From Candidatus Woesearchaeota archaeon (GTDB taxonomy: Archaea; Nanobdellota; Nanobdellia; Woesearchaeales; GCA-2685855), in contig NYYS01000018.1 of assembly GCA_002685855.1 (NCBI GenBank), forward strand, positions 12,859 through 76,858: 64,000 bases of DNA, written 5' to 3'. The position numbers and the translations under genes were made by a program. The notes beneath the pieces were generated by a model. The model was not told the DNA's origin. It did not search any database and saw nothing but the letters and a program-made list of their open reading frames with translations. The first letter of the stretch is position 1. Every line of letters begins with the position of its first letter. Of this stretch, positions 1 to 64,000 are shown in pieces.

Positions 1-681
1 GTCATCCACCATGACGGATTCATGAACTTCATCCAACGCGTAGCCATCTGGGATGAACAAGAAATCATCGACCTCTCAAAAAAAGTAAAAAACCCCAAAC
101 AAACACTCAACAAATCCAAAACAACCGGCCCGCTGATCGTCGTCGACCCTGTCCAGCCAGACAGAAACGCAGCCGCAGCACTATCCTTGGAAAAATTCAA
201 CCTCCTCAAACAAAGCGCAAAAGAATTCCTTGAAAACCCCTCAGAAAAATTCTTCACCATCCAACCACTCAACCCCGCACAACTCAAAAAAGAAGGCGCA
301 CACATCATCACAATAACACCCCTCGAAGGAAAAAAAGATGTTGTCGGAACAAAAATCATAAAAGTACTCAACCACCTCAGACAAAACCTCGCAGAACGCG
401 GCTTCACAATCACCGACTCAGGATTCGACATGAAACTCATCTACCTCTTTACAGAAGAACACAAAATCCCCCCAACATTCATCCACAAAGGACCCCCTAT
501 TGAACAAAAAAACCGAGCAGACGCCTTCAAAAAAAAATGGGGAAAAACAACCTATGAAAAAGAAGGAATCCTCTACACCAAACGAAAACGCGATTTCATC
601 CACGCAGCCGACTGCATCAAACACCACCTCAAAGACCCCTATGTAAAAGAACGACTCAAAAAATGCTCTCTGAAATCCTAA
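1..681 (+). CDS. 5'-truncated ORF running off window start; C-terminal part of a class I nucleotidyltransferase, possibly archaeal CCA-adding tRNA nucleotidyltransferase
   Basis: Reading frame is open from nt 1 (no stop before ATG at 22). Segment 'PLIVVDPVQPDRNAAAALS' resembles the conserved neck region of archaeal CCA enzymes. A/C-rich native codon usage. Confidence 0.4.
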   Translation, partial: VIHHDGFMNFIQRVAIWDEQEIIDLSKKVKNPKQTLNKSKTTGPLIVVDPVQPDRNAAAALSLEKFNLLKQSAKEFLENPSEKFFTIQPLNPAQLKKEGAHIITITPLEGKKDVVGTKIIKVLNHLRQNLAERGFTITDSGFDMKLIYLFTEEHKIPPTFIHKGPPIEQKNRADAFKKKWGKTTYEKEGILYTKRKRDFIHAADCIKHHLKDPYVKERLKKCSLKS

Positions 682-1163
682 AAACAAACGTCTTAGCAAT
701 CTTCGCACACCCCCTCCTCCAAATAATCATACTCACATTCCTCCCCTTCCTCGAACTCAGAGCAAGCATCCCCCACGGCATCCTCATCGCAAAACAACCC
801 TGGCTCCTCGTCTTCTTCACAGCAGTCATCACAAACATCATTCTAGGCCTGCTGCTCTACCTCGTCCTCGACAAACTCATAGAACTCCTCTGCAAAATCC
901 CCTTCATCAAAAAACTCTACACCGCCTACATCATAAAACTCCAAAAACGCATCCACACAACCGTAGAAAAATACGGAGAATGGGGACTCGCAATCTTCAT
1001 CGGAATTCCCCTCCCCGGCAGCGGCGTCTACTCAGGCGCACTCGGAGCAAAAATCCTCGGATTCACCTGGAAAGACTACACCATCGGCTGCATCCTCGGA
1101 GTCTTCATCGCAGGAATCGCAGTAACAATAATCACATTAGGAGGAAGTGCGATCTTCAGTTAA
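663..1163 (+). CDS. small integral membrane protein, putative small multidrug export family (COG2426-like)
   Basis: 166 aa, four hydrophobic helices with a Gly-rich C-terminal helix. Overlaps upstream stop by 19 nt. Confidence 0.5.
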   Translation: MLSEILKTNVLAIFAHPLLQIIILTFLPFLELRASIPHGILIAKQPWLLVFFTAVITNIILGLLLYLVLDKLIELLCKIPFIKKLYTAYIIKLQKRIHTTVEKYGEWGLAIFIGIPLPGSGVYSGALGAKILGFTWKDYTIGCILGVFIAGIAVTIITLGGSAIFS

Positions 1164-1234
1164 TATTACACCAGAATGTCCTATCTTACTATCGGCAACC
1201 CCATTTTTAGTCCATACCGATACAAAGGTTTATC

Positions 1235-6182: not shown

Positions 6183-7106
6183 ATGAAAGTTGCAATACTA
6201 CATCAGGATTTAGAATGGGGTGAAAGAGAAATCGCAAGACAATTACAACAAAAAGGTTTTACAGTCAACCTATTCGATGTGCGAACCACTTCCCTGGAAG
6301 ATCTTACACAAACAGAGGAACTCCCCTCCCTCGTCCTTAACAGAGTATATGCATCAGTAGCCAACAGAGACTACAGAGATAATATTAAAATATTAGACCT
6401 ATTACTATCCTTGGAACGTCTGGGAATACCTTGTATGAATTCGTACTATACCTCCCAGTTCGATTACAGCAAGTTCAAAGCAGCAAAAAGACTCAAAGAA
6501 GAAGGAGTCTCAACTCCAGAAACACTCTATGTAGGATGTTTGAATACTGAAACAAAAGATCGCATAACAGGATTTATAAAAAAATATGGCTTTCCTCTCA
6601 TAGTAAAAAGAGATATGGGTGGAAGAGGAAAAGATTTACAAAGAATTGAAAATGAACAATCTTTGTATACATTTTTAGAAAATAAATTTTCTCCAACAGC
6701 TCAGCATGAATATGCAGGCGGATTTGTAGTCCAGGAATTTTTAAAGCCCACAAGGCCATTTGATTGCAGACTAGCTGTTTTTGACGGAGAATTTGCATTT
6801 TCCTATGGCAGAACACTCATTTCCAGAGTAAATAACGGTGACGCGCCTTGGTTAGCAAGTGTAAAACTAGGTTCAAGAATGATCAATTACGATCCTACCC
6901 CCGAAGAAGTAGCTCTAGCTATTTCAGCCTCAAATGCAATTGGGGCTATTTTTAATGAAGTAGATATGACTCAAACAGAAAAAGGACCTGCTATTATAGA
7001 GAACAATCCCACACCAAACTACGACGAAACTGAAATAGATCGTGTAGCAAAAGCTGTAGATCTAATCGAAAAAACCTATTGTACTACAGAGGCAATCCTA
7101 AGATGA
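6183..7106 (+). CDS. RimK-type ATP-grasp ligase (alpha-L-glutamate / amino-acid ligase family)
   Basis: ATP-grasp fold motifs ('IVKRDMGGRGKD', 'VVQEFL...DCRLAVFDGE'). Abrupt shift to balanced base composition exactly at the start codon. Confidence 0.6.
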   Translation: MKVAILHQDLEWGEREIARQLQQKGFTVNLFDVRTTSLEDLTQTEELPSLVLNRVYASVANRDYRDNIKILDLLLSLERLGIPCMNSYYTSQFDYSKFKAAKRLKEEGVSTPETLYVGCLNTETKDRITGFIKKYGFPLIVKRDMGGRGKDLQRIENEQSLYTFLENKFSPTAQHEYAGGFVVQEFLKPTRPFDCRLAVFDGEFAFSYGRTLISRVNNGDAPWLASVKLGSRMINYDPTPEEVALAISASNAIGAIFNEVDMTQTEKGPAIIENNPTPNYDETEIDRVAKAVDLIEKTYCTTEAILR

Positions 7107-8032
7107 AAGGTGTTGTAAGTGTAAATTCTGATTTCCCTGCATATCTGGACGGAAGAGAAGAACTGGAATATTTTTCAACCAAAACACTCCTGTCTCGTTT
7201 TGTAACACGCGGAGACACAGTAGCAATCGTACATCCTGAAGATATTCAGAATCAGGAAAAGAAGGTGACCTTTAAAAAACTCTTTACCTTTCATCCACCC
7301 AATAGATTAGAGGAGGCAGATCCTTCGTCATTTCAGCAAGGAAATTTCTTTCTTGTACGACAATTCGGAGAAAACCTAGAGTCTGAAAAATTCGTACACC
7401 GATTTATCACCGCACTTTCCTGCCTGGAAAACCAGTTTTACTTAGTAATGAACACTGCATCTGCAACAAAGTACGAACTGAAAAATATCCAGAAAACATT
7501 AGACATACCTTTTATTCCAGCGTTTGACATAAACACCCCTGCAGATTTAGAATCAGTGGTGGCTTCTGGCGAAAAAATTATTGCAAAACCATTTACAGGA
7601 TTTATGGGAAGAGGTATAGAGTTTTTCGATTCAGTTGAAAGCGTATATCGCGTCTTTAACAACGGAAGAACACCTCAAGGATACTGCTTCGAAAGATATA
7701 TTCCTGCAACCATGGAAACAAGAATAGTTTTCATTGACGGATCAATCCCCTTTGCCAGACCACGAATGGTTGAAGGACCACCCGGAAAAGAAAAAGCAGC
7801 AGGATACTCTCTTACCCAGCCCACATCCAACCAACGTACAATAACACAGCAGGTCATAGAACAAACAGGAATGCAATTCGGTTCAGTTGACTTCAGAGGA
7901 GAATTCGTGCTAGAGATAAACGGCTCAGGTCTCGGCTTGGTTCCTCCGGCAAAGGTAAAGAACTACGATCAAATCCAACCCTACGATCTAACAAACGACC
8001 TAATCGACCTCATCAAAAGAAAAAGTCAGTAA
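7103..8032 (+). CDS. second ATP-grasp-like protein
   Basis: 'IAKPFTGFMGRGIEF' and 'YCFERYIP...ETRIVFIDG' resemble ATP-grasp B/C-domain motifs. ATGA start/stop overlap with the RimK-like gene. Confidence 0.45.
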   Translation: MKGVVSVNSDFPAYLDGREELEYFSTKTLLSRFVTRGDTVAIVHPEDIQNQEKKVTFKKLFTFHPPNRLEEADPSSFQQGNFFLVRQFGENLESEKFVHRFITALSCLENQFYLVMNTASATKYELKNIQKTLDIPFIPAFDINTPADLESVVASGEKIIAKPFTGFMGRGIEFFDSVESVYRVFNNGRTPQGYCFERYIPATMETRIVFIDGSIPFARPRMVEGPPGKEKAAGYSLTQPTSNQRTITQQVIEQTGMQFGSVDFRGEFVLEINGSGLGLVPPAKVKNYDQIQPYDLTNDLIDLIKRKSQ

Positions 8033-8033
8033 A

Positions 8034-8903
8034 ATGTCAAAAGAAAAGATCCAACTTATCGCACCATCACACCACATCTACCCAAAACACATAACAAACG
8101 CAATCTTTTCTTCAAAAAAACTCGGATACGATCTGAAATATTCTCCTTCTATTCACCAAAGAACTCTTTCCTTTGCCGGCTCACCTGAACGCAGAGCCAA
8201 CGAAATTCACCAAGCATTCAAAGATCCTGCGGTCATACTCATCTTGGCGGCCTGCGGTGGAAACGGATGTATAGAAATTTTACCTCATCTAGACTATAAA
8301 CTTATTAAAAAAAACCCAAAGCCAATAATTGGCTTCAGCGACATCTCTATACTATTAAATACTATAAATCAAAGATGCGGCCACATCATGATTCATGGTC
8401 CATCCCAAAAACACTCCTGGAAACATCTTAGTAAAGATGAACAAAAATCAATCATCAACTGCATTCACAAAAAATCATTCAAACAAACCTTTGAAAAAAA
8501 AGATATTCTTTTCCCCTCAACAAAAATCATTAAAGGAAAAACCTCTGGTGGATGTTTATCCCTTCTTGTCGATTCATTAGCAACACCTTACGAAATAAAA
8601 ACTAAGAACTCAATCCTTTTTTTGGAAGATGTGGATATAAAAGGAAGAAGACTTTACACTCTTCTCGTTCAATTAAAACTAGCAGGTAAGTTCCAAAAAG
8701 TAAAAGCAATCGTTCTTGGAAATTTTAAAAACTGTCTTCATGCCAAGCCCTATCTAACAAACTTTTTTAAGAATCTTACCCTTCCAACAGTTCATACCAG
8801 CCTATTTGGTCATGGAAAACTAAACCACGCCTTTCCCATAGGTGCACAGGCCGAGATCAATTTTGATAAAAAAGAGATTAGATATCACTTTAAAGCGCGG
8901 TAA
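8034..8903 (+). CDS. LD-carboxypeptidase (peptidase S66, MccF/LdcA family)
   Basis: 'IIGFSDISILL' nucleophile-Ser motif with family-typical length and layout. One base after the upstream stop. Confidence 0.6.
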   Translation: MSKEKIQLIAPSHHIYPKHITNAIFSSKKLGYDLKYSPSIHQRTLSFAGSPERRANEIHQAFKDPAVILILAACGGNGCIEILPHLDYKLIKKNPKPIIGFSDISILLNTINQRCGHIMIHGPSQKHSWKHLSKDEQKSIINCIHKKSFKQTFEKKDILFPSTKIIKGKTSGGCLSLLVDSLATPYEIKTKNSILFLEDVDIKGRRLYTLLVQLKLAGKFQKVKAIVLGNFKNCLHAKPYLTNFFKNLTLPTVHTSLFGHGKLNHAFPIGAQAEINFDKKEIRYHFKAR

Positions 8904-9542: not shown

Positions 9543-10606
9543 CGATACATTTATATACATCCGCCCCTAGAATTCAGAATGAATATGGGAAGGGGAGTCT
9601 ATATACACTACTGTGTATACTTATTCTAACAACATCATCAATAGCCATATCTGTCGACGACATTGTAAAAATCGGCGAAAAATATGAAACAGGAGCCCTC
9701 ACATTTGCCCAACTCCGCATCGAAGGCAGTCTTCTCAGAGAACAACTCCAGGAAGAACTCGGAGAAGGATTCGAAGTCACCTACAAAGACCTTGGCCGAG
9801 GAAAAGATAGAGAAAGGGCCAAAGAAGGAGGACAAGGCCAAGGTGAAGGAGACAGCACAGGAAAAGGAGGAGACGAATTTGGTGATGAACCCGAAGAACC
9901 CGAAGGAGGATTAACAGGCGCTCTAAGTTGGCTAACAGGATTAGTAACAGGGGAAGAGGATCATGAAGGTGATGACAACCGTGATGATGATCGTGATGGT
10001 GATCATGGTGATGATAGAGACAAAGATGACAGGGATAAAGATAGTAGAGACAAAGACCATGAAGGCGACAAAGATAAAGATGATCAAGACTATGAAGACT
10101 TCGAAGAACATCGCTGCACACCCGAAACATGCAACCAACCCAACCAATTCTGTGATGAAGAAAAAGGATGGTGCGAATGCGAAAAAGGCTGATATGAATG
10201 TGATGGAGACTGGGATAACGGATGTGAAGCAGAAGAAGAATGCTATGGCTGCGAATCTGACGATGACTGTGCACAATCACGCTGCTCAGAGTGGGGAAAC
10301 ACCCTCATCACATTTGGCTGCATCACAGAGGAAGAATGGGAACACGAATCAGGTGCCATCGCCTTTGTAGGCGGATGCAACGAACACCCCACAGGAAAAA
10401 CAGACAGCTACATCCACTTCGAGGTCTGGGGAGAACAGTTCGATGAAATAAATAAACTCCGCGACTTCAAAGGAGAATTCCAGGACGACTGGTGCACCTA
10501 TGATCTTGAACAAGCACTCATCCAGAGAGAAGAATTCGAAAAATCACTTAACGACGAATTCCTCCAATGGTACAGCTCAAAAGTAAAAAAGAACACCATA
10601 AGCTAA
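9485..10606 (+). pseudogene. acidic low-complexity, Cys-rich secreted-type protein whose frame continues 138 codons past an in-frame TGA (10190-10192); pseudogene or recoding candidate
   Basis: Frame stays open from the TGA to TAA at 10604-10606, with no in-frame ATG/GTG/TTG in the downstream part. The Cys-rich pattern continues across the stop ('CECEKG*YECDGDWDNGCEAEEECYGCESDDDC'). Real start uncertain because the annotated ATG overlaps the upstream gene by 58 nt. Confidence 0.4.
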
Positions 10607-14014: not shown

Positions 14015-14061
14015 AAACAGAGAAATCAGAAGTTCTTTTTAAAGCTACTGGGGGGGAACGG

Positions 14062-14271
14062 TTAATTCAATAAGGGATTCTGATGATAGATTCTTGTTAC
14101 ACGATGAATCCTCATTAACTCATCATAGGTGTGCTTTCGAATTATATAATCTGTAAAACCTTTCAAAAGGAAATCGACTGCAGCTTTTTCCTTAGATCGA
14201 GGCTTCTCAGCTTTTTCAGCCAAATAACTCTCTGGATCTGCCATAATGTCAACAACATCACGAACATCCAT
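14062..14271 (-). CDS. small hypothetical protein (69 aa) in the AT-rich island
   Basis: ORF only. A 48-codon Cys-rich ORF (MKKEQTKKICCSEMAAQLKHQCDLHKNIFDCPDNIVC) lies just upstream at ~14322-14465. Confidence 0.25.
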   Translation of the reverse strand: MDVRDVVDIMADPESYLAEKAEKPRSKEKAAVDFLLKGFTDYIIRKHTYDELMRIHRVTRIYHQNPLLN

Positions 14272-14468
14272 AGATCTGTCAACAAACTCACGTTCCGGCC
14301 GCTCCTCAAAATGATCTCCTAATCCTGCCTGATCCCAAACATATCTCCTTTAAAACAAACAATGTTGTCAGGACAATCAAATATGTTTTTATGGAGATCA
14401 CACTGATGTTTAAGCTGAGCAGCCATCTCTGAACAGCAAATCTTTTTTGTTTGTTCTTTTTTCATTTT

Positions 14469-14876
14469 TTATCCAATAACCCAAACTACATCTCTAATAA
14501 AGTAGAACCATTTCTTACCTTCAAAAAGATCTTCTTTAAACAAAGGTATATGTTTGTACTCTTCGTATTCTAGTTCTTCTTCAGTGCATCCCATTAAATC
14601 GTAATAGTTATTAATAGATAAATTAACACCCTTAAGAGCGTCTTTAAATTTAAAAGGTTCGACGGTTTTCGCCTCCATAAATGTCTTATCGTAAAAGTCT
14701 TTAAAATCGTCGATAGCCACAACCACCTGCGAATCTTTGAAATGCTTATTAAACACCCAGATTTTTAGATAATACTCTTCTCTGAATGAATCAAGTTTCT
14801 TCTTCCAGCTCAAATAAATATCTACAAGCTTCTTTTTCCAGCTGATTTCCATCCAATATGCGGATTTATAGGGCAT
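14469..14876 (-). CDS. hypothetical protein (135 aa); candidate immunity/accessory gene downstream of the RHS-RNase toxin
   Basis: AT-rich, Lys/Glu-rich, same strand and tightly spaced after the toxin and the 343-aa ORF. No detectable barstar-like motif. Confidence 0.4.
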   Translation of the reverse strand: MPYKSAYWMEISWKKKLVDIYLSWKKKLDSFREEYYLKIWVFNKHFKDSQVVVAIDDFKDFYDKTFMEAKTVEPFKFKDALKGVNLSINNYYDLMGCTEEELEYEEYKHIPLFKEDLFEGKKWFYFIRDVVWVIG

Positions 14877-14953
14877 TTTTCTTCAGGAAGAATGTGGCCG
14901 TAGTCAATATGAACTCGAGCACTTGCCTGTACACCATGACCTCTAGATTCTTT

Positions 14954-15985: not shown

Positions 15986-16003
15986 TTTTATCCCTCTTTT
16001 TTA

Positions 16004-17215: not shown

Positions 17216-17244
17216 GATCCCCCCTTCACAAAAGGATGTTTCTT

Positions 17245-17259
17245 GAAATATTTAAATAT
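17245..17259. promoter_or_regulatory. 15-bp palindromic site GAAATATTTAAATAT, copy 1 of 2 in the divergent toxin promoter region
   Basis: Identical 15-mer recurs at 17351-17365, ~106 bp away. The core ATATTTAAATAT is self-complementary. Confidence 0.45.
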
Positions 17260-17350
17260 TCTTCCTGGAATTCCGGATATTTTCCGAAGAGAAGGTACAC
17301 ATATTCCTTGTTTACTTTATAAACGGTTTAATGAATCTTCTTTAAGAAGG

Positions 17351-17365: not shown

Positions 17366-17409
17366 CTCTGTTCTCAAAATAGCTTATGTTACGTAGGGGT
17401 TAGCTAGTA

Positions 17410-18436: not shown

Positions 18437-18440
18437 AAAT

Positions 18441-47944: not shown

Positions 47945-48456
47945 GGGGAAAACCAGAGCCAAAGCAAGATCTTTCTAGCCTGAGCGATCTCGAACTCTTC
48001 CAGGAACTCGGAAAAAGACTCGCAGAAAAACACCAAACAGATCCTTCCACTCTTCTCATCCCCACACCCACTCCCCAAAACACCATCCCTCTCCCCATCT
48101 TTACAGGATCCCTTTCTCCCCTAGAAGCCGTTGTCAAATACCTCCACGAAAACCACAAACTCTCATTCACCGCAATCGGAATCAAACTCAACCGCTCGGT
48201 AAAAACAATCTGGCAAGCCTACCAAACAGCAAAAAAGAAGATGCCAGAACCCTTCACACCCTTCAAAGGAGAAACACTCCCCCTCTCAGAACTCTCAAAC
48301 AGAACCTTCTCACTCTACGAAAACCTCGTTCTTTACCTTTCAAAAAAACACCGCCCGAAAGAGATCGCCCTCCTCATCAACAGACCCCAACGAAACATTA
48401 ATACAATCCTTAGCAGAGCACGAAAAAAAGATCAACAAACAAAAACAGAATCATGA
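47932..48456 (+). CDS. small HTH protein with sigma-70 region-4-like helix-turn-helix segments; candidate regulator of the downstream giant gene
   Basis: 'LSFTAIGIKLNRSVKTIWQAYQTAKKKM' and 'EIALLINRPQRNINTILSRARKK' resemble region-4/LuxR-type HTH. Overlaps the start of the 2750-aa ORF by 4 nt. Confidence 0.35.
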   Translation: MQKNRGKPEPKQDLSSLSDLELFQELGKRLAEKHQTDPSTLLIPTPTPQNTIPLPIFTGSLSPLEAVVKYLHENHKLSFTAIGIKLNRSVKTIWQAYQTAKKKMPEPFTPFKGETLPLSELSNRTFSLYENLVLYLSKKHRPKEIALLINRPQRNINTILSRARKKDQQTKTES

Positions 48457-51400
48457 ATAAAAAACAAAAAGCAAAACAAATACCCTCAGAAGGGAAATTA
48501 CTCCTACTAGTCCTATTCATACTTACAACTACACTTATCTACTACATCCAGCCAGCCTTCATCGCATTCATCATCTACGACGAAACCAGCATCACACTTC
48601 AACTCAACCAAACAATAACAGAAGATACATTCCTGCCTCTCGAAATCGGAAAAGTAGACTCCATCCATATCAAAGGCCATCTTATAGGAAACGGAACCGC
48701 AACCATAAAACTCGACCAACCAGGAAAAAACCTTCTCATCTATGAGAAAACAGGCTCTAAAGTAAATCCCCTCATCCCCAACGATCCACCCTCCGACTCA
48801 CCCCTTCAAACAACAATAACCTACGGAAACAACCCAAACTTCGACACAGACAACAACGGATGGGAACTCACCACTAATGCAATCGACTACACCGTAGAAA
48901 CAACCAACACCCAAAAATACAACCAAAGCACACTCTGCACTCGCTGGGCACTTAACAACCAATACATAGAATGCAACGGAAATGCAATGTGCTGCCTCTT
49001 CACAGGCATTGAACAAAGAACAGAACAATGGAACGCCCCTTTCAGCCTTCACGACCAACTCCTTGGAGTAAAACAAGCAAACCTCATCACAGCACAACTC
49101 ATCTCAACAACAATCAACTACACCAACATCACAACACAACCCGGATCAACACAATCCCTTCCAGGGTATTTCATCGACAACACTCTCCAATCGCCAATCG
49201 ACCACTGCGGAGAAACCTGCACCTTTGAAGGAACCCAGGATCCCCGTCTAAAAATAGAACTCCACAACGCAGTCCTTTACATCGACACAATCACCTACAC
49301 CCCCTACTCCGAAAACAAACCACCCACACTCCAAAAAAGCACCCACAAACTCTACTCCGGAGCAACACTCAAATTCACAGAACTCTTCCACGATCCAGAT
49401 AAAGACAATCTCACAATAACAATCACAAACACAACAAACCTCACACTAACAAAAACCCACCAAGGATATAAAATAGAAGGAAAAAAAGGAAACTACACCC
49501 TTGAAATAGAAGCCAAAGACCACCGCTACACAATAACAGAAAAGATAAACCTCACCCTCAAGGATTTCAACCTGGAAACCCTCCTCAACAAAAACAAAAA
49601 AGAAAAAACTGATGAAAAACCCTCTGTAAAGATAACCGGCCCCGCCGAAATCAAAGGAATCTACAAACACCCTCAAAAACAAAGCCCCTTCAAAGGAATA
49701 CAATTCGGCGCATTCATCCAAGAAGGAGATGTAGAAATAGGAATAAAAAATAAAGGCCTGCTCCTCCTCAAAGATGCAAACTACGCCGGCCTTGAAGAAA
49801 TACAGGTCAGAACACCCCCAAGCAGAAGATATGCCACAGACATCATCGCAGTAAACGACATCCAACTCAAAGAAGCAGTCTTTGTACTCCCCAAACAATC
49901 ACCAATAACCCAAATACAACACTGCCCCAACTGGAACTTTGAAGAACAAAGCTGTCCAAAATGGGAAGATGCAGGAGTGGCATTTGCACAAAACCAAACC
50001 CATGTCTGGTGGGTAGCAGACCACTTCTCAGGATGGGTAGGACTCAGCTACGGCTTTGACGATTTCGAATATGATGACGATAATAACTATTGTACAGACA
50101 CACCATCTCTTGAAAACTGGATGACAGTTTCCTGTGAAGCAAATGCGGGCTCGTTCAACCTCACAACAGACAACTGCTACTTAGGATCCTCCTGTGGAAA
50201 TGTAACCAACACAGACTCACAAGATGCTGCAAACGATGTAACAATAGTCTACAACTCCAATCTCTCTTCAGCAGAGATCGTCGACCAAAGAGTCTACTTC
50301 AAAGAGGACTGTGCAAACCCCCTCTCCGGAGGAAACGGAGATACCTACATAATGGGATTAACAAGAGGATCAGGAGCAGCAGTTGCCAGAATGGGCTTCA
50401 ATAGTGAAGGCCTTCTTGGTTGCCAACGAAGAAATATGTCAGACAGCCTAGCAAACTGCGCAGGACAAACAGCACAAAACCTCACCTGTGGACGATGGTA
50501 CTATCTCGAAATCCATTACGACACAAGAGTAAACAACCTTACCTGCTATGTCAACGGAACACCCTTCTGCTCAGAAGAAGGAGTAGTCATATTCAGAGAC
50601 AACGTAACAATAGAGGCCATAGGAATCCTCCCAACTTCAGACTACCAAAACAACGAAACATTCTTCCTCGACGAATACCACACCGCCGACAAATACCTTG
50701 GAGGCTACCCTTGGGTAGAAGATCTCAACCACACAACCAGATTCGTCACACCCGGCACCGACCTAACAATAAACGCAACAATCTACGACAACGATGTCAT
50801 CAACGGAACCCTCGGCACCGTGCTACTAGAAGGAAACTGGAGCGGAGTAATGACCAACTATACCCCCACAAGTTCAGGATCCAAATACTTCTACAAAGTC
50901 GGACGAGGAAACTTCTCAAGCAACGACTCAGTAGGCTACCGCTGGTATGCAAACGACACCATCAACCAACAATACTACTCCCCCCTGCAAATAATCACAA
51001 TAGAAAACAGATTCATCCTTGACACAGATCAAAATAACCTCACAGATCTCTTTCTCAGCAGCCTTCTTCTCGCAGACGTAGACAACGACTCAGACCTCGA
51101 CCTCTATCTCTCAGGAGCAACAGCAATACCTGGCGGAAACGTATTTTCCGGACTCTACCTCAACAACGGATCTGGACTCTTCACAGACACACTTCAAGCC
51201 AACTTCATTGCACTCAGAGAAGGATCATCCACCTTTGGCGATACAAACAATGATGGACTCCCCGACCTCATAATCTCAGGATTAAATAGCGGATCAAGAT
51301 ACACAAGAGGCTATATCAACAATCTATCAAATCCAGGAACATTCTACAACGACACCTCATCGAGTTACAATCCTCTTTCCCTTAGCAGTTTTGCACTTGC

Positions 51401-54400
51401 AGATTATGATGCAGACGGAGACTATGATCTCATCGCAACAGGACTTTTTGCAGCCGGAGAAGGAGCAGGAATTAACACATTTACAGATGGTGTATCAGCT
51501 CTTGATACAACCCATATCAACAACTTCACAAACGTATCCCGTCCAGCACTTCTATTAGCAGATATAGATAGTGATGGAGACCTTGACATCTTCATGACAG
51601 GACAAACAGAAGCCACCCCCCTCTACACAGGAATCTACCTCAACAACGGCTCAGGAAGATACATACAAGACCAATCACAGGCAAACCTCCTCGCAATCTT
51701 TAATGGAGCAGCAGTAGCAGCAGACATAGATGCAGATGGAGACATCGACATCATCATCGCAGGAGACTCAAACGAAACAACCACAAAAAACTACACAATG
51801 GAGGTCCTCCTCAACGACGGAAATGGAAACTTCTCAATAGACAGTCAACAAGACAACCTCACCGGACTCGATTTTGCTTCACTCGCAGTAGGAGATATCG
51901 ACCTCGACGGAACAATAGACATCTTTGCAATGGGAAACACCTCAAATGGACCTGCTGCATTCACCTATCTCAACAACGGATCCGGCTACTTCAAAGAAGA
52001 CGAATCATTCTCAGCAATGCCCCTTCATTACGGAAGCGCAGCCCTTGCAGATATTGATAACGACGACGACCTTGATCTTATCATCTCAGGAACAAACAAC
52101 ACCTATCGTAACTACACTCTTGTCTACAAAAACCAGATCAACAGAAACATGACCAACCGCCCCCCTGTAGCTCCCACAGGCATCGACTGGAACAGATCCG
52201 GAAGCAACGGCAAACTCGAACTAAACTGGTCCATAGGAACAGACAATGCAACAGGAGCAAACGCAGTCACACCTGACAACGCAATAACCTATCACCTCAG
52301 TCTCGGAACAACTCCCGGCGCATCAGACATCATGAGCAGATCCTATGGAGGATTCTCCAACCCGAGCAACGGCCACCTTGGAAACAGACTCCAATCAAGA
52401 AACCTCTCACTCTACCTCGAAGGAACCTACTATGCTACCATCCAATCAATAGACGCACAAGGAAAACTCTCCGACGACAACCTAACATTACTAACTAATC
52501 AACCACCAACACATTCAGCCCCCATACTCAACACCTCCCCCCTCAACAACAACCGAACAAGTGAAAACTTTACCTGCTACAACCAAACAACCTACGACTT
52601 CGACAACGACACAATCGTAAACGCCTACAAGTTCTACAGAAACAGCACTTCAGCAGTCATCGTGCAAGCAAGCTTTGAGGACAACAGCACAACCATTGAA
52701 AACTTCCCACCGCTCACAGAATCAGGAACAAACTATACAAACGGCTACCAAGGAAGAGGAATCTACATAGATGACAACGACCAACTCAACTATAGTGCAA
52801 CCTCCCTTCTTACAGCTGAAGAGGCCACGATCGAGCTCTGGACACGCTTCGACTGGGACCCCGGAGCAACCGGAGACACAAACCACACACTTATATCCTT
52901 CGGAAACCAATCAAGCTATCAGAATACAGGAATACTTTTCTACAACGACGTATACAATCTCCTCGCCCTTACCCTATTTGGTGAAACAGGATCTCCTCGT
53001 ACAGTAAGCTACGGAATAAGCGATATCAACCCAAACGAATGGCACCACATACTCGTATCATGGGACTACAACAACGGAACAGGAATAGAGATGGAACTCT
53101 ACCTTGATGGAGCTCTCGTAGACAACACTCCCTCTTCCCAAACAGCCCTTACTGTGAATTCAGGAGGAACAGGAGGAGACGGTGTCTTCATAGGGAGATA
53201 CAACGACATAGCCTATGCAAACGCAACAATTGACGAACTCTACATCTGGAACGTTCAGATGGGCCTTGAAAAAGCAGTCCAAAGCAATGCAACAAACTAC
53301 GGCTTTGTTCCATCTGGATCAACCAACAAAAACGAAACCTGGACCTGCGAAGTAACACCTCAGGACAGATACACAAGAGGCCTCCCATCAAACTCCAGCC
53401 AGATCCTAATGCTCTCACAACTACAAGTTGATCTAAACGACCCAGACAACGGAACAACAAACCAGCTTTTCACAAACGTATCCTACAATTGCAGTGCAGA
53501 ATCCTCTTCAGTTTTATCAAATATAACCCTCTATCCTGACTTCGAAGGATGGCAACAGAACGGAACAACCACCACCTCAGGACTCAACAACTCCATAAAC
53601 ATAACAAGATCCTACGAAGGATTAATCACAGGAGATAAACAACGCTTTACAGACGGAAGAATTCTCTGGAACTGTAGAGTAAATGATTCATCAGGAGAAT
53701 CAGCCATAGCAACAACAAATTCCACATTCAGCAACTGGGACCTCGGAAACCACTCCAACACTTCCCTCATCAACAACCGCCTCAGTCTCATAAAAAACAC
53801 CTCAAACGAATATGAAAACCTAACAGGAACATTCGACAGCAGAGTCTTCGATGGCGGTGTAGGAGCCTACTGGGATAACTTTTCATGGAAACCTCTCACA
53901 CCCTATGGTGTTGGCCTCTTCAACACCACAAACATACTCTATCACTTTGACAACTCTTCAGATCTGCAAGAAGACAACGGAACCTATACCGATGCAACAC
54001 TCCAGGGCACCAACTGCTCATCAAGCGGAACATCGGTTCCACTATTAGACACAGAAAAGATCTTCGGAACATTTGCAGTCGATTTCGACGGAACAGACGA
54101 CTATATCTCCTGTAATGACACAACTTTATTAAACCTTTCAGGAATATACTCGATCTCGTTCTGGATCAGAACCAATGCAACAAACGTTCCCATATTCGCA
54201 AAAAATGATTATGCAGGAACTCCTGCAGGTTTCCAATTCCAAATAACCTCAAACGGCACAGCAGCATTCAAGGCAACACGATCAGGAACAACAATGTACC
54301 TAGAAGGAACAACAAACATATCCGATGACAGATGGCACCACATCTCAACAAGACACATACAACTTGTCATGCCCGGACCATCATTATCACAGAACATATC

Positions 54401-56705
54401 TCTTTATGTTGATGGAGTATACGAAGCAGGAGCTATAGGTGCAATATTTTTCAATCTTAAAACAGCAGCCAGACTTGAAATAGGAAGAAACGACACCTCC
54501 TACTACGACGGACTAATTGATGAGCTTTCAATAACTTCTTTAATGCCCGAAAAGAACCATAGTTACGAATTCGAACGAGGCCTCTCAAACTTAACATTCC
54601 AGGTACGAAGCGATGCAGACAACGCCAGCTGGCCCGCCCACCTCGGACCAGACGGAACAGCAAACACCTTCTTCACAAACTGGACACACTCCGAATTAAA
54701 TGTATCCAAAAACCGCTACTTCCAATACAGAGTCTTCCTCAACTCATCACGAAACAGCATCACCCCAGGACTCGAACGAGTACTCATAAACTATACACCT
54801 AACCCCCCACCAAACTTTGGAAATGTAACTCTCCAGAACAACTTCCATCTCTTTGATGGAAACGGAATAGACCTCGGAGCAGTCGTTGTAAACGATACCT
54901 ACATCGACAACGGAACAAGTGATGGAGGATCAAATGCAACAAACTACAATAACCAAAGCCAAATGATCATGATGCAATTTAACTCTACAGATAGAACAGA
55001 AAGACGCGGCATCTTCGCATTTGAAACCGACCAGGTAAAAATTGTAAACATCTCTAACGCCACCCTAGAACTATTCGCAATAGCAGTTAACCAGACACTT
55101 CAGAACATAAGTCTTCATAGGGTAACCTCTACCTGGAACGTCGACGTAGTAAGCTTTATCAACAGAACAACTTCAGGACTATGGACAACACCTGGAGGAG
55201 ACATTACAGCAGCAGAAGAAAGTTGGACAAACCTAACAACAAGCAACAGCTGGCATAACTGGACAATAACCAATATCGTCCAAAACTGGCTCAACGGAAG
55301 CTGGTCAAACCAAGGAGTACTACTCAAACCATCAGGATACGGAACAAACAAAAACAGCCAATGGGCAGACAGCTCAAGAAGATACTTAAATCCTCGCCTC
55401 GTAATCCGCTGGAACATTCCCTCCCTTTCAATCGTCGAAAACCTTAACACAACACTAAACCTATCACTCTACTTTTCCGACACATACGGAGAAGAACTCA
55501 ACTATACTGTAAACGCAAGCTCAAACTTCACCACCTCAATCGACCAGACAACAGGCATCGTAAACATAAGCCCGCAAGCAGGCTTCATAGGTAATGGAAC
55601 ACTCATCGCATCTGCAACAGACGGCTACCAATCTACAAACAGCAACAACTTCACCGTAAACATACGAGCAGACACACCATCAATCATACTCAACGCATCA
55701 CCTGACCTTCCAAACGCCACACAAAACCTCACCTGTAACATAACAGCTGCAGATAACCAAACCGCAAACCTCACCGTAGAATGGTACTGGTATAACAGCT
55801 CAACAGTCTTCAATTCAGGAAACACAACCGTACAAAACAACACAGAAACCACTATCGCCACTGTAAACTCTGCAAACACCCTAAAAGACCAAGTCTGGAA
55901 CTGCACCGCAAGAGTAAACAGAAGCATCCGCTTCTCACCCTATGTAACAGATAGCCTCACGATTGTAGGAACCCCTCCCTCTACGCCCGTACCCCTCACA
56001 CCAACAAATGGAAACACAACCTTCCGTGACCGCCAGGTTAACTTTACCTGGCAGGCAGCCACAGACGTCGACAACGACTCAATAACCTATGCAATAGAAG
56101 TCAACAACTCCGTCTGCCCAAACATACGAAACGACTCAATCAACACAACCTACTACCTCTCATCAATACAACTCTGTACAGACGACGAAGCAGCCTCCAA
56201 CCTCTACTATTGGAGAGTTGTAGCTAGTGACGGAACACAAAACGGAACCTATTCCTCAATATTCAACTTTTCCATAGAACCCTATGTAACAATAACAATA
56301 GATCCTAACAGTGTAGGATTCGGAACAGGCTATGGAAGAGGAGCGACAAACGACACAACAAATGATAGTCCCCCGCCCTTCACAATACGCAACGATGGAA
56401 ACGTTGTCGCAAACCTGACAAACATAACTGCAAACCAAACACTCTGGGGAAGCTCAAGCGCAGGACTCGGAACACGCTACATGAGAGTACGTGCCTCAAA
56501 CAGCACAGAAGCAAACAGCTACAACGACTCAGGATCGATCACAAACTTCACAAACCTTAACTCATCCATCCCAAACGTCATTGCACAACTCAACTACAAC
56601 GACAGCAGCGACGAAGTAGACGTAGATCTCTCAATCGAAGTACCTGCTGACGAAGTCGCAGGAGCAAAAAACACCACAATACTATTCATATGGCAACAAT
56701 CATGA
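48453..56705 (+). CDS. giant (2750 aa) secreted/surface protein: N-terminal TM/signal, FG-GAP (integrin-alpha-like beta-propeller) repeats, two LamG/ConA-like lectin domains, many Ig-like beta domains, very rich in N-glycosylation sequons
   Basis: Seven 'LADxDxDGDxDL..SG' FG-GAP/VCBS-like blades (51.06-52.10 kb). LamG-like 'TIELWTRFDWDP...WHHILVSWDYNNG...ELYLDGALV...DELYIWN' and 'YSISFWIRTNAT...WHHISTRH...SLYVDGVY'. More than 150 N-x-S/T sequons. Confidence 0.7.
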   Translation: MNKKQKAKQIPSEGKLLLLVLFILTTTLIYYIQPAFIAFIIYDETSITLQLNQTITEDTFLPLEIGKVDSIHIKGHLIGNGTATIKLDQPGKNLLIYEKTGSKVNPLIPNDPPSDSPLQTTITYGNNPNFDTDNNGWELTTNAIDYTVETTNTQKYNQSTLCTRWALNNQYIECNGNAMCCLFTGIEQRTEQWNAPFSLHDQLLGVKQANLITAQLISTTINYTNITTQPGSTQSLPGYFIDNTLQSPIDHCGETCTFEGTQDPRLKIELHNAVLYIDTITYTPYSENKPPTLQKSTHKLYSGATLKFTELFHDPDKDNLTITITNTTNLTLTKTHQGYKIEGKKGNYTLEIEAKDHRYTITEKINLTLKDFNLETLLNKNKKEKTDEKPSVKITGPAEIKGIYKHPQKQSPFKGIQFGAFIQEGDVEIGIKNKGLLLLKDANYAGLEEIQVRTPPSRRYATDIIAVNDIQLKEAVFVLPKQSPITQIQHCPNWNFEEQSCPKWEDAGVAFAQNQTHVWWVADHFSGWVGLSYGFDDFEYDDDNNYCTDTPSLENWMTVSCEANAGSFNLTTDNCYLGSSCGNVTNTDSQDAANDVTIVYNSNLSSAEIVDQRVYFKEDCANPLSGGNGDTYIMGLTRGSGAAVARMGFNSEGLLGCQRRNMSDSLANCAGQTAQNLTCGRWYYLEIHYDTRVNNLTCYVNGTPFCSEEGVVIFRDNVTIEAIGILPTSDYQNNETFFLDEYHTADKYLGGYPWVEDLNHTTRFVTPGTDLTINATIYDNDVINGTLGTVLLEGNWSGVMTNYTPTSSGSKYFYKVGRGNFSSNDSVGYRWYANDTINQQYYSPLQIITIENRFILDTDQNNLTDLFLSSLLLADVDNDSDLDLYLSGATAIPGGNVFSGLYLNNGSGLFTDTLQANFIALREGSSTFGDTNNDGLPDLIISGLNSGSRYTRGYINNLSNPGTFYNDTSSSYNPLSLSSFALADYDADGDYDLIATGLFAAGEGAGINTFTDGVSALDTTHINNFTNVSRPALLLADIDSDGDLDIFMTGQTEATPLYTGIYLNNGSGRYIQDQSQANLLAIFNGAAVAADIDADGDIDIIIAGDSNETTTKNYTMEVLLNDGNGNFSIDSQQDNLTGLDFASLAVGDIDLDGTIDIFAMGNTSNGPAAFTYLNNGSGYFKEDESFSAMPLHYGSAALADIDNDDDLDLIISGTNNTYRNYTLVYKNQINRNMTNRPPVAPTGIDWNRSGSNGKLELNWSIGTDNATGANAVTPDNAITYHLSLGTTPGASDIMSRSYGGFSNPSNGHLGNRLQSRNLSLYLEGTYYATIQSIDAQGKLSDDNLTLLTNQPPTHSAPILNTSPLNNNRTSENFTCYNQTTYDFDNDTIVNAYKFYRNSTSAVIVQASFEDNSTTIENFPPLTESGTNYTNGYQGRGIYIDDNDQLNYSATSLLTAEEATIELWTRFDWDPGATGDTNHTLISFGNQSSYQNTGILFYNDVYNLLALTLFGETGSPRTVSYGISDINPNEWHHILVSWDYNNGTGIEMELYLDGALVDNTPSSQTALTVNSGGTGGDGVFIGRYNDIAYANATIDELYIWNVQMGLEKAVQSNATNYGFVPSGSTNKNETWTCEVTPQDRYTRGLPSNSSQILMLSQLQVDLNDPDNGTTNQLFTNVSYNCSAESSSVLSNITLYPDFEGWQQNGTTTTSGLNNSINITRSYEGLITGDKQRFTDGRILWNCRVNDSSGESAIATTNSTFSNWDLGNHSNTSLINNRLSLIKNTSNEYENLTGTFDSRVFDGGVGAYWDNFSWKPLTPYGVGLFNTTNILYHFDNSSDLQEDNGTYTDATLQGTNCSSSGTSVPLLDTEKIFGTFAVDFDGTDDYISCNDTTLLNLSGIYSISFWIRTNATNVPIFAKNDYAGTPAGFQFQITSNGTAAFKATRSGTTMYLEGTTNISDDRWHHISTRHIQLVMPGPSLSQNISLYVDGVYEAGAIGAIFFNLKTAARLEIGRNDTSYYDGLIDELSITSLMPEKNHSYEFERGLSNLTFQVRSDADNASWPAHLGPDGTANTFFTNWTHSELNVSKNRYFQYRVFLNSSRNSITPGLERVLINYTPNPPPNFGNVTLQNNFHLFDGNGIDLGAVVVNDTYIDNGTSDGGSNATNYNNQSQMIMMQFNSTDRTERRGIFAFETDQVKIVNISNATLELFAIAVNQTLQNISLHRVTSTWNVDVVSFINRTTSGLWTTPGGDITAAEESWTNLTTSNSWHNWTITNIVQNWLNGSWSNQGVLLKPSGYGTNKNSQWADSSRRYLNPRLVIRWNIPSLSIVENLNTTLNLSLYFSDTYGEELNYTVNASSNFTTSIDQTTGIVNISPQAGFIGNGTLIASATDGYQSTNSNNFTVNIRADTPSIILNASPDLPNATQNLTCNITAADNQTANLTVEWYWYNSSTVFNSGNTTVQNNTETTIATVNSANTLKDQVWNCTARVNRSIRFSPYVTDSLTIVGTPPSTPVPLTPTNGNTTFRDRQVNFTWQAATDVDNDSITYAIEVNNSVCPNIRNDSINTTYYLSSIQLCTDDEAASNLYYWRVVASDGTQNGTYSSIFNFSIEPYVTITIDPNSVGFGTGYGRGATNDTTNDSPPPFTIRNDGNVVANLTNITANQTLWGSSSAGLGTRYMRVRASNSTEANSYNDSGSITNFTNLNSSIPNVIAQLNYNDSSDEVDVDLSIEVPADEVAGAKNTTILFIWQQS

Positions 56706-60847: not shown

Positions 60848-62080
60848 CTACCTTTTCAGAATCTTAACTCTCTTAATCCCCCTCTTAGTAACCTGATCAA
60901 CCTCAATAACAACCTTCTTCAACTTAATCTTCTCACCCTTAAACGGAATCCTCTGCAACTTATTCTGAATAAAACCACCAATCGTATTAAACTCCTTCTC
61001 TTCCAACTCAATACTAAAGTACTCGTTAATCTCCTCAATAGGCGTACGCGCATCAGCACTAAACATCTTCTTCCCCTCCTTCCTAAACCACTTACTTGAT
61101 TTCTTGCTCTTATCAAAGATATCCCCAACAATCTCCTCAAGGATATCCTCCAACGTTACCATCCCCGAAACAGCCTCATACTCATCCACAACAATAGCAA
61201 GAGGAACCTTCCTGCCTTGAAACTCGACAAGAAGATCATCAATCTCCTTACACTCAGGAACAAAATAGGCCGGCTGCGCCAACGTCTTCACCTTAACATC
61301 CAAACGCTTATTCTTTGCATACTTCAACACATCATCAACATCCAAGATCCCAACAACATTATCCTTAGAATCAATATATATCGGATATCGGGAAAACCCG
61401 TTCTTCACAACCGAGTTCAACACAAACCGCAACTTCTTCCGCCCATCCACCATCTTCATATCAACCTCAGGAGTCATAATCTTCGTAACCCTTGTACCCT
61501 CAAAATCCAAAACATTATGCATAATCTCAGCAGCCTCCTTACTCAGAAGACCCTCCTGCTTTCCCATCGTAACAATAGTACGCAACTCCTCAGGAGATAG
61601 TTCCTCTCCACTCTTTGATCCCAACAACTTTGAAATCATCCGTGAAATAAAATCAAACACCTTCACAACAGGAGACAAAATAATAGACAGCACCTCAATC
61701 GGCCGCGCAACCAATAGGGAAATACGTTCAGCATTCTGAGAAGCAAACGTCTTAGGAGTAATCTCTCCAAACACCAACACCAAAAAGGTCATCACCCCTG
61801 TTGCAATACCCACACCCGAAGATCCAAACAACTCAGTAAAAATCACCGTAGCATAGGCAGCAGCACCAATATTCACAACATTATTCCCCACAAGAATCGT
61901 AATAATCATCCGATGCGGACGCTCCTTAATCCGCAACAAAGCCTCAGCACCCCTCTTCTTCTGCTTCACCAGGGCCTGAACCTTAATCATATTCAAAGAA
62001 ACAAGAGCAGTCTCCACACCAGAGAAAAAACCAGAAAAAAATAATAACACCGCTAAAAAAAGTAGTGGGGGTCCAAGCAT
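60848..62080 (-). CDS. CNNM/CorC-HlyC family transporter (DUF21 TM domain + CBS pair + CorC_HlyC)
   Basis: DUF21 N-terminus 'FFSGVETALVSL'. CBS pair. C-terminal 'TIGGFIQNKLQRIPFKGEKI' CorC_HlyC domain. Confidence 0.7.
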   Translation of the reverse strand: MLGPPLLFLAVLLFFSGFFSGVETALVSLNMIKVQALVKQKKRGAEALLRIKERPHRMIITILVGNNVVNIGAAAYATVIFTELFGSSGVGIATGVMTFLVLVFGEITPKTFASQNAERISLLVARPIEVLSIILSPVVKVFDFISRMISKLLGSKSGEELSPEELRTIVTMGKQEGLLSKEAAEIMHNVLDFEGTRVTKIMTPEVDMKMVDGRKKLRFVLNSVVKNGFSRYPIYIDSKDNVVGILDVDDVLKYAKNKRLDVKVKTLAQPAYFVPECKEIDDLLVEFQGRKVPLAIVVDEYEAVSGMVTLEDILEEIVGDIFDKSKKSSKWFRKEGKKMFSADARTPIEEINEYFSIELEEKEFNTIGGFIQNKLQRIPFKGEKIKLKKVVIEVDQVTKRGIKRVKILKR

Positions 62081-62226
62081 AGATATCTCTCATGCCTCTT
62101 AACCAGGAATCATTTATAAACATTACGCATAAAACCCGAAAAAGATCCCCTTCGCTCCAACACATCCTCTCTCTAGCAACCCCCAAAAGATCACATTCTT
62201 TATAAACACCCACGAACAAAAAAAGA

Positions 62227-64000
62227 GATGGCCGAACTGCAGAGAACCCTCAGCTACAAAGCCCTCCTGCTCATAGCAATAAACAGCATCATGGGAACAG
62301 GAATCTTCTTTCTTCCCGCCCTAGGAGCCAAACTCGCAGGACCCGCAAGCATCCTCTCCTGGATCCTCCTCAGTATCATGAGCATCGGCATCGCAATGTG
62401 CTTTGCAGAACTTGCCTCCATGTACCCAACATCAGGAGGAATATACGAATATGCAAAACGCGCCTACGGAAGCTTCCCAAGCTTCATCATAGGATGGGGA
62501 ACTGTCGTAGCAGGAAATATAACCATAGCCATGCTCGTAGTCGGAGCAATCCAATACCTCAACCCCGCCATACCCACACTCTTCAAAATTGGAGTAAGCC
62601 TCTTCTTCGTCCTCTCTTTCAACTATATTGGATACAAGGGCATGCAAACAAGCAAAGTCATGCTCATCACCTTTGCATTCATCACCCTCGGATCCCTCCT
62701 CGGCATTATCCTCCCCGGAATTTTCTTCATCTCCACAACAAACTTCACCCCCTTTGTTGTCACACCCCTCCCCTTCATCTTCATAACCATCTTCTTTATT
62801 GCAGAAACCTTCTTTGGCTGGGAAACCGTAACATTCCTAGCAGAAGAAACAAAAGATGCAGAAAAAAACATCCCAAAAGTCCTCATTCAATCAACCTTCA
62901 TCATCGCAGCCATCTGTATCCTCTTTGTCCTCACCTCCATGAGCATCCTCCCCTGGAGCGAACTCGCAGAATCAGCAGCACCCCTCGCCTCACTCGCAAC
63001 AGGAATATATGGAGCAAAAGGAGCAAGCATCTTCGCAATCCTTGTCTACCTCTCCATCATTGGAAGCGTAGCAGGATGGATCGTCAGTGGACCCCGCCTC
63101 CTCCTTGCACTCGCAAAAGACAAACTCTTCCTCACCCAATTTGCAAAAATCCACCCCAAATACAACACACCCTATATGGCAATCATCTTCCAAACAATCC
63201 TAACAAGCATCCTCGTCATCGTAGGGGCAGGAAGCTACCACACCCTTCTCAATCTCCTCCTTCCTCTAGTCCTCATCCTCTACTCAACCGTTATTCTTGC
63301 ACTCATCATCCTCAGAAAAAAACACCCAACCCAACCAAGAGGCTACAAAGTACCCTTTGGCATACCCGGATGCATTCTCCTCATCTTTATCAACATCGGA
63401 CTCATCGCATACTGGCTCCTCAACATGGCAGGAAGCTTCCAACTCTTCACGCTCATGATCCTCTTTGTCATAATAGGATTGCCACTCTACCTCCTCCTCG
63501 TCCTCTACTACAATCCCGAAGCCACAATAGCAGTAACATCCTCCCTTGCCTACCTCAACGCCATCTTTGAAAACTTCACCCTCTCAAAAAAGATCCGAAA
63601 AGAACTCCTCGCCTTCTTTCCCAACCTCAAAGGAAAAAAAGTCCTTGAATATGGCGCAGGAGTAGGAACCCTCACAAAACACATCGCAGACGCAGTCGGA
63701 GACGGCGGAGTCGTCTTTGCAACAGACATCAGCCAAAAAAACGTCAAACTCCTCAAAAAAAGAATGGAATACAGAAAAATAAAACACGTCAACGCAATCG
63801 TAGACGAACACCAATTCAGCAGAGTCCACCCCGACATAGAAAACGTAGAAGTCATCTTCAGCGTCGGCATGCTCAGCTACATACAAGACCTTGAACACGT
63901 ACTCAAAGACATGAACCGCATCCTCCCCGAAGACGGAAAAATCCTCTTTGTAGAATATGTGGACTACTTCTGGGGACTCATCCCCAACCCCCAATGGCTC
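62227..64000 (+). CDS. APC-family amino-acid permease fused to a C-terminal class I SAM-dependent methyltransferase domain; 3' end runs off the window
   Basis: Permease 'IAINSIMGTGIFFLP...GGIYEYAKRAYG'. MTase motif I 'VLEYGAGVGTLTKHIA...VVFATDIS'. No stop to nt 64000. Real frame is +1 relative to the junk track ORF 62398-63570. Confidence 0.6.

Follow-up and report, generated by a model that had tools for sequence, protein, structure and literature searches.

Why is one strand of an archaeal DNA segment so rich in A and C, whichever way its genes point? The question is raised by a window of 64,000 nucleotides (nt), the whole stretch of DNA that was analysed, from contig NYYS01000018.1 of a Candidatus Woesearchaeota archaeon. 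Its + strand comprises 21681 A, 18398 C, 14479 T, and 9442 G (33.9, 28.7, 22.6, and 14.8 %), which gives a GC skew of -0.322 and an AT skew of +0.199. By these counts, the excess of C over G equals 53.7 binomial standard deviations and that of A over T 37.9, and the surplus of C on the + strand amounts to 140 per kb. The amino bases A and C make up 62.6 % of the + strand and 86 % of its fourfold-degenerate sites, and the - strand is rich in the keto bases G and T. The enrichment of A and C extends over positions 1..64000 and is seen in the skews and at the fourfold sites of native genes in both orientations. A preliminary description of the window had reported an extreme excess of C over G and of A over T. 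The asymmetry is real and stronger than claimed there, with GC skews of -0.32 overall, -0.60 locally, and -0.87 at fourfold sites. It is strand-specific, mutational, and driven by transitions, and it does not come from transcription or codon selection.

The skew varies along the window in strength and hardly in sign. In 1-kb windows, the GC skew falls to -0.60 at 21-26 kb and is clearly positive nowhere except at 9.3-10.8 kb, and the cumulative GC skew is monotonic over the 64 kb. The most extreme native block (20877..31869) has GC skews of -0.45 to -0.60, and its genes have fourfold-site GC skews of -0.76 to -1.00. By Pfam, the - strand of this block encodes the pyruvate dehydrogenase (PDH) subunits E2, E1b, and E1a, a lipoyl-synthase-like radical SAM protein, a HAD protein, thymidylate kinase, and ThyX, and the + strand encodes a kinase-dCMP-deaminase fusion. 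The composition that the preliminary description gave as an example for 25441-25500 is exact (C 35, A 40, T 15, and G 10 %). Its 40 % A and 15 % T hold locally, but not for native blocks generally, which contain 31-33 % A and 19-21 % T.

The neutral sites separate the effect of the strand from that of gene orientation. GC4 and AT4 skew denote here the skews at fourfold-degenerate sites, given for the + strand. Native + genes have A.449, C.407, G.028, and T.116 at these sites (n=3654), and native - genes have A.410, C.456, G.030, and T.104 (n=2622). The comparison of the two gene sets, which the preliminary description had suggested, thus yields nearly identical + strand compositions, with GC4 skews of -0.873 and -0.876 and AT4 skews of +0.590 and +0.596 for + and - genes, respectively. 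When the GC4 skew is decomposed automatically, -0.75 is assigned to the strand and -0.02 to gene orientation. Native intergenic DNA has a GC skew of -0.38 and an AT skew of +0.21, with the same sign as at the fourfold sites. The equal + strand composition under + and - genes indicates that the bias follows the strand and not gene orientation, and the sign of the skew does not track the coding strand. Fourfold, twofold, and intergenic sites therefore all bear out the independence from orientation that had been claimed, the orientation effect being about -0.02 and the strand effect -0.75 to -0.87.

Genes on the two strands are written in opposite synonymous codons. Third codon positions are A.40 and C.44 in + genes, and G.47 and T.41 in - genes, so that NNC and NNA codons prevail in the former and NNG and NNT codons in the latter. 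The proteins differ as well. I, N, T, Q, P, and H are 1.4-2.0 times as frequent in those of + genes, and V, R, M, C, E, G, and D are more frequent in those of - genes. The amino acid contrast noted in the preliminary description is thereby borne out, except that K, listed there among the + strand residues, does not differ (ratio 1.06). The largest + strand gene, a 2750-amino acid (aa) FG-GAP surface protein identified by Pfam (48453..56705), has fourfold sites of A.53, C.33, G.02, and T.12, and contains 11.1 % T and 10.7 % N residues. Among 30 orthologues of Taw1, that of the window, encoded by the G+T-rich strand, ranks highest in the share of amino acids with GT codons and lowest in the share of those with AC codons. 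With one proteome in two codon dialects, the organism offers a clean natural experiment on how mutation drives the evolution of proteins.

On each strand the genes are intact and have strong Pfam matches, such as 2e-75 for PDH E2. The + strand genes include the C-terminus of the CCA-adding enzyme, MoxR, VWA, Asp/Glu racemase, metallophosphoesterase, the kinase-dCMP-deaminase fusion, NMD3, the FG-GAP surface protein, a SET-domain protein, and a sugar-nucleotidyltransferase. The - strand genes comprise a diacylglycerol-kinase-like protein, AlkD-like, Taw1, PDH E1a, E1b, and E2, the lipoyl-synthase-like protein, Tmk, ThyX, TFS, DUF460, a Hel308-like protein, NUDIX, and CNNM. Pfam agrees with all the gene identities assigned earlier from the sequence, namely MoxR, VWA, the racemase, and the surface protein on the + strand, and PDH, ThyX, and the Hel308-like protein on the - strand. 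The presence of a class-I CCA enzyme, Taw1, TFS, NMD3, and an archaeal Hel308 domain indicates that the host is an archaeon.

The kind of mutation can be read from sites at which only transitions are silent. On the + strand, twofold sites have A/(A+G) of 0.89-0.94 and C/(C+T) of 0.78-0.87, the same ratios as fourfold sites. Since these sites are equally biased, transitions suffice to explain the asymmetry. Neutral sites of the + strand have come to A ~.43, C ~.43, T ~.11, and G ~.03, with an A/G ratio of ~14-16 and a C/T ratio of ~3.5-4.4 in the fourfold composition. If a transitions-only equilibrium is assumed, these ratios imply a strand-bias product of ~56-60, which is the C to T rate on the - strand relative to the + strand multiplied by the corresponding A to G ratio.

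Relatives of the window show the direction of the change. The closest by Taw1 are 60-62 % identical, and MoxR is 60 % identical; they share with the window the order of Taw1, metallophosphoesterase, regulator, VWA, and MoxR. These syntenic relatives (L092/L093) have 32 % GC and a GC4 skew of 0.10-0.17. Their weak skew indicates that the extreme state is derived in the lineage of the window. At conserved residues of + genes, a T in the relative corresponds to a C in the window at 81 of 122 sites. In - genes, the relative's A has become G in 69 of 111 cases and its C has become T in 34 of 44. The main shift is therefore T to C on the + strand (A to G on the - strand), and GC has been raised from ~32 % to 44-50 %.

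A wider comparison covered 80 of the archaeal loci with Taw1 in GTDB representative genomes, of which ~45 were long enough to score. The genome of the window is not among these 80, the best match listed being 55 % identical. In five of the scored loci, all from Woesearchaeota, the GC4 skew is strand-specific and amounts to 0.31-0.51, G and T being enriched together in every case, and the others have at most 0.2. The five moderately skewed, orientation-independent loci (L022, L033, L074, L034, and L002) are contigs of Woesearchaeota metagenome-assembled genomes (MAGs), and L022 lies on a 408-kb contig. Strong strand-specific bias may thus be recurrent in Woesearchaeota. A single clade of skewed Woesearchaeota was considered and rejected on the weak evidence of a single-gene neighbour-joining tree, in which the five loci are scattered.

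With the public contigs that overlap it, the sequence can be followed over -8765..72080 (80.8 kb), and no change in the sign of the skew occurs over this range. A candidate flip at 69-72 kb was rejected, because an island of Cys-rich secreted proteins lies there and its larger gene still has more C than G at fourfold sites. Two genes of the extended region deviate from the common pattern. FtsZ (65174-66355, -) has a GC4 skew of about -0.5, weaker than most native genes, and S24e (-6540..-6178) has a strong GC4 skew (about -0.8) and a low AT4 skew. Expression-linked selection or local GC content could account for both.

The window is probably ordinary chromosomal DNA of an uncultured marine DPANN archaeon that is under replication-linked, unrepaired transition pressure on one strand. 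C to T and especially A to G changes would accumulate on the - strand over the long term, far faster than on its partner, and would be read on the + strand as G to A and T to C. The - strand would be the exposed single-stranded template, i.e. the lagging-strand template with the sequence of a leading strand. Its amino bases C and A would deaminate to uracil and hypoxanthine, and these would be copied unrepaired. Replication forks would then move from high to low window coordinates, and the entire 80.8 kb would lie in one replication direction. The proteins of the two strands would drift to different amino acids. Exceptions would be recently acquired genes that are not yet eroded, base-paired tRNA genes, and one acidic low-complexity gene. 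Archaeal family-B DNA polymerases normally stall at template uracil and hypoxanthine, and loss or strand-restricted use of this surveillance would yield exactly these two transitions.

The tie to replication is suggested by similar patterns elsewhere. Deamination in single-stranded DNA leaves G and T enriched together on one strand, a signature known from bacterial leading strands and from the heavy (H) strand of mitochondrial DNA (mtDNA) (PMC3269012). The vertebrate mtDNA H strand is single-stranded during strand-displacement replication and has an asymmetry of comparable strength (PMC3269012). The G+T-rich strand carries the genes for ribosomal proteins, RNA polymerase subunits, FtsZ, and DNA ligase, in weak agreement with the - strand as leading-strand sequence.

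Several points weigh against replication-linked deamination. The link to replication is by analogy only, because no origin, terminus, or sign flip is seen in the 80.8 kb. According to a survey, archaea are poorly equipped to mutate or repair their two strands differently (PMC12999951). The GC skew of intergenic DNA is under half of the -0.87 at fourfold sites, which is put down here to an assumed constraint by promoters and terminators. The five single-nucleotide differences between the public assemblies are too few for a polymorphism spectrum. Over 39 genes of the 64 kb, the skew has no significant gradient with position (Spearman rho 0.25 for GC4 and -0.25 for AT4, p ~0.12), possibly owing to saturation. 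An exposure-time model in the manner of mitochondria might predict such a gradient, and saturation could mask it.

Vertebrate mtDNA resembles the window in having one A+C-rich and one G+T-rich strand with both types of transition, only a few per cent G at the fourfold sites of the A+C-rich strand, and codon usage and amino acid content that depend on the coding strand (PMC3269012). The window differs in being a segment of at least 80 kb of a cellular archaeal chromosome with similar gene numbers on both strands and no detected gradient along the sequence. The replichore skew of bacteria is similar in that G is co-enriched with T, independently of orientation and most strongly at synonymous sites. 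In contrast, the window has a far greater magnitude and no observed switch at an origin or terminus; its 140 excess per kb compares with SkewDB averages, as cited in PMC12999951, of ~23-25 surplus G per kb for bacteria and 7-8 for archaea.

Ch65, a bacterium that belongs to the Candidate Phyla Radiation (CPR), is the one obvious whole-genome outlier in base parity among 17,873 complete genomes, with 29.83 % C and 14.97 % G (PMC11514846). Unidirectional replication was proposed for it by its authors (PMC7143001). In Ch65 as in the window, one strand has roughly twice as much C as G (29.8 vs 15.0 %, compared with 28.7 vs 14.8 %), the genes are split about evenly between the strands, and the host belongs to a small-celled uncultured lineage. 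Ch65 differs in being a bacterium without A/T disparity (27.9 vs 27.3 %), whereas the window is archaeal and has 33.9 % A against 22.6 % T, with an AT4 skew of +0.59. The Ch65 pattern was shown on a closed chromosome, and that of the window is known from 80.8 kb. The available passages on Ch65 mention neither neutral-site values nor embedded unskewed islands, both of which the window has.

Archaeal skews have been ascribed in a 2026 survey to gene orientation and translation, with little strand-specific mutational bias (PMC12999951). The systems treated in this survey and in a related preprint (bioRxiv 10.1101/2023.11.15.567178) share the host domain with the window, which is dominated instead by a strand-specific mutational component. 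No report of such an asymmetry in Woesearchaeota, other DPANN lineages, or any archaea was found in the literature searched. The type of phenomenon is familiar; the archaeal host is unexpected, GC and AT components occur jointly, and the magnitude is like that of mitochondria. Neutral sites with 3 % G and 43 % C on one strand are, as far as found, unreported for cellular chromosomes outside the CPR case. The window is a counterexample to the generalisation that archaea lack strand-specific mutational bias, and lends itself as a natural case in which to ask what repair or polymerase functions usually keep this bias in check.

A possible, though clearly less probable, alternative is that the asymmetry has a uniform sign over the whole chromosome, the same strand always being exposed by unidirectional, strand-displacement, or rolling-circle-like replication. 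It would agree with the lack of a flip in 80.8 kb, with C and G contents nearly equal to those of Ch65, and with the linear cumulative skew of the closed Ch65 chromosome (PMC7143001, PMC11514846). The magnitude, too, is like that of mtDNA, where strand-displacement replication is the accepted cause. However, 80.8 kb is a small part of the genome, and chance alone would lead one to expect no flip within it. The usual peaked pattern has been reported for one DPANN archaeon (PMC7111523), and the region contains no replication genes or origin. If true, Chargaff's second parity rule would be broken by the genome as a whole, as proposed for Ch65. It would be the first such case among archaeal cellular genomes, with G/C and A/T both affected, and, taken with the CPR bacterium, it would suggest that ultra-small episymbionts have a replication mode in common.

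A doubtful second alternative is unequal polymerase fidelity, in which the enzyme that copies the + strand would make G.T wobble errors without mismatch correction and the one that copies the - strand would be accurate. Mutator alleles of yeast Pol delta and Pol epsilon leave strand-specific spectra, so such a mechanism can exist. The + strand changes T to C and G to A are the exact outcomes of G.T mispairs on a + template, and T to C is the larger component, which is unusual for models of pure cytosine deamination. The window, however, gives no evidence on polymerase content, and its composition alone cannot tell this process from deamination of the - strand, being equally compatible with both.

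Editing of one strand by an encoded nucleic-acid deaminase is improbable. The candidate is the kinase-cytidine/dCMP-deaminase fusion (30835..31869, +), which matches Pfam dCMP_cyt_deam_1 and AAA_17/ADK and, more weakly, MafB19-like deaminase models. It adjoins thyX and tmk, and is most simply a dCMP deaminase for the synthesis of deoxythymidine monophosphate (dTMP). The C that is left on the - strand is scarce to the same degree whichever base precedes it on the 5' side (1.6-4.1 %), without an APOBEC-like context, and the larger shift, A to G, is beyond a cytosine deaminase. The fusion was therefore rejected as a mutator, given the lack of sequence context, the dominance of A to G, and its place in a dTMP-synthesis cluster.

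It is very improbable that the pattern is an artefact of a chimeric contig, one-strand assembly, or chemically converted DNA. The sequence does come from a MAG; exact protein matches lead to the NCBI entry 'Candidatus Woesearchaeota archaeon' (locus tags CMO92_, MAE13181-MAE13244, on a 78,823-nt contig), and fragments of window proteins are labelled Tara Oceans station 039, mesopelagic. In addition, two public contigs both stop at window position 24517. Against an artefact, five public assemblies in the European Nucleotide Archive besides the NCBI MAG contain the window DNA at 99.98-100 % identity, with 0-2 mismatches per contig, and the skew is equal on either side of 24517. Conserved genes are intact on both strands, balanced tRNA genes and islands are embedded in skewed DNA, and synteny with relatives is kept. 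The two contigs that end at 24517 (ERZ27286384 k119_1073764 and Tara scaffold_1221) break inside the lipoyl-synthase-like gene, through which the NCBI contig continues.

A transcription-coupled or codon-selection origin, of the kind claimed generally for archaea (PMC12999951; bioRxiv 10.1101/2023.11.15.567178), was rejected as scarcely credible, since the orientation component is negligible beside the strand component, the fourfold sites of + and - genes are identical in + strand composition, opposite codons on opposite strands leave no single preferred codon set, and the skew is also present in intergenic DNA.

Four islands depart from the native composition, and their gene assignments are from Pfam. 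Island A (6183..8903, +) is partly skewed, with GC4 skews of -0.38 to -0.67 and 38-41 % GC, and encodes a RimK-like ATP-grasp protein, an unknown protein, and an S66 LD-carboxypeptidase. Its ATP-grasp protein is not orthologous to the one at the syntenic place in the relative L092. Island B (14015..20876) is balanced, with 26-42 % GC and GC4 skews of -0.41 to +0.04, and encodes an RHS/YD-shell protein, a protein with a C-terminal sorting domain of the type IX secretion system (T9SS), an M48/M56 peptidase-like protein, and small unknown proteins. It also occurs in an independent contig (L001). Its homology is limited to the bacterial-type T9SS sorting domain of the Fibrobacteres-Chlorobi-Bacteroidetes (FCB) group, at ~40 % identity over 15-25 % of the protein. 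No donor of island B was found beyond this shared bacterial domain, and no repeats like attachment (att) sites were found flanking it. Island C (42746..44152, -) is balanced (GC4 skew +0.04) and consists of a secreted beta-helix (NosD-like) protein between tRNA genes. Island D (46177..47793, +) encodes a secreted protein with NosD and Golvesin domains and is weakly skewed, with a raw GC skew of ~0 and a GC4 skew of -0.38.

The pooled - strand genes of islands B and C have fourfold sites of A.36, C.14, G.13, and T.36 and a GC4 skew of -0.02. Island composition resembles that of ordinary AT-rich Woesearchaeota, and the products are secreted or surface proteins. The islands are likely to be recently acquired genes, which is the best reading of their sequence; insertion is plausible because neutral-site composition, GC, and gene content fit, and because island C lies between tRNA genes. 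Pfam detected no integrase in the islands, and no donor, flanking att-like repeat, or empty-site variant was found for them. On a skewed background, balanced DNA stands out, and the skew is thus a sensitive marker of recent gene transfer and of structured RNA genes. As a side observation, the S66 LD-carboxypeptidase, the T9SS-type sorting-domain protein, and the RHS/YD-shell toxin-like protein (6183-8903 and 14015-20876) are bacterial-type genes in this archaeon.

The preliminary description had taken all the balanced islands for recent insertions. Composition and gene content agree with this for the islands above, but not every balanced place is an insertion, the exceptions being the tRNA genes (42.5 and 44.2-44.7 kb) and an open reading frame (ORF) rich in D, E, and G (9.6-10.4 kb). 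The latter is a low-complexity coding region rich in D, E, G, and K (9600..10400, +) and is the sole place with a positive raw GC skew. G occupies its first codon positions, and its third-position skew is still -0.57. The positive raw skew is thus due to the first-position G of this ORF.

The skew also upsets standard annotation, with shadow ORFs of up to 541 aa and real genes replaced by antisense calls. The largest shadow ORF (20970..22595, +, 541 aa) is antisense to PDH E2/E1b, and its codon-position skews (-0.95, -0.10, and -0.52) mirror the true - strand frame. A second (23168-24304, +, 378 aa) is antisense to PDH, and a third lies at 41274-42098 (+). A fourth (62398-63570, +, 390 aa) is off-frame inside a real gene, the 5' part of an amino-acid permease/methyltransferase (62177..64000, +), which matches AA_permease in Pfam, runs past the window end, and has a 652-codon open frame in contig L084. 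The long spurious ORFs predicted in the preliminary description are therefore present, and those at 20970-22595, 23168-24304, and 62398-63570 have no Pfam match. The gene caller of a public collection missed MoxR, VWA, and metallophosphoesterase and gave short antisense ORFs in their place, on the G-rich strand. The miscalled genes are on contig L086 (window 12083 to -8765, reversed), e.g. at L086 7781-9917 and 2605-2982. Exact-protein look-ups of these three genes fail for this reason.

Two native genes have further peculiarities. MoxR (2174-3172, +) contains a 29-aa insertion at residues ~60-95 when compared with its 60 %-identical orthologue. T, N, K, P, C, and Q abound in the insertion, and their codons are A/C-rich, in line with the bias of the + strand. 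The Hel308-like ORF (40821-42359, -) begins at the second RecA domain, without the N-terminal DEAD/RecA1 domain. Directly upstream of it are non-coding DNA, a tRNA gene, and island C. The ORF may be truncated or split.

The tRNA genes around island C contain introns. ARAGORN with its intron option identified tRNA-Val(AAC) with a 29-nt intron (42533..42639, +), and tRNA-Ile(GAU) (44245-44463, -) after removal of a T-loop intron. A probable tRNA-Asn(GUU) (44469-44655, -) was assigned by eye. Both tRNA-Ile and the probable tRNA-Asn have a short anticodon-side intron and a long (~95-135 nt) T-loop intron, and the region 44245..44655 has an RNA fold z of -5.5. Neither Rfam nor ARAGORN with default settings, both of which found nothing, detected these three genes, on account of their introns and not of the skew. 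They are balanced in composition because base-pairing constrains the RNA structure.

Repeated sequences accompany these tRNA genes. A perfect 30-nt direct repeat (42425-42454 / 42516-42545) duplicates the leader and 5' end of tRNA-Val 91 nt upstream of the original. A shared motif, GGGTTTCGCC..GCAG.CTCAAGCCC, occurs upstream of tRNA-Val (42502-42528, +) and also within the T-loop intron of tRNA-Ile (44281-44304, -). The tRNA-associated motif had no matches in metagenome contigs of the Joint Genome Institute (JGI). An integration scar or a mobile intron element could underlie the repeat and the motif.

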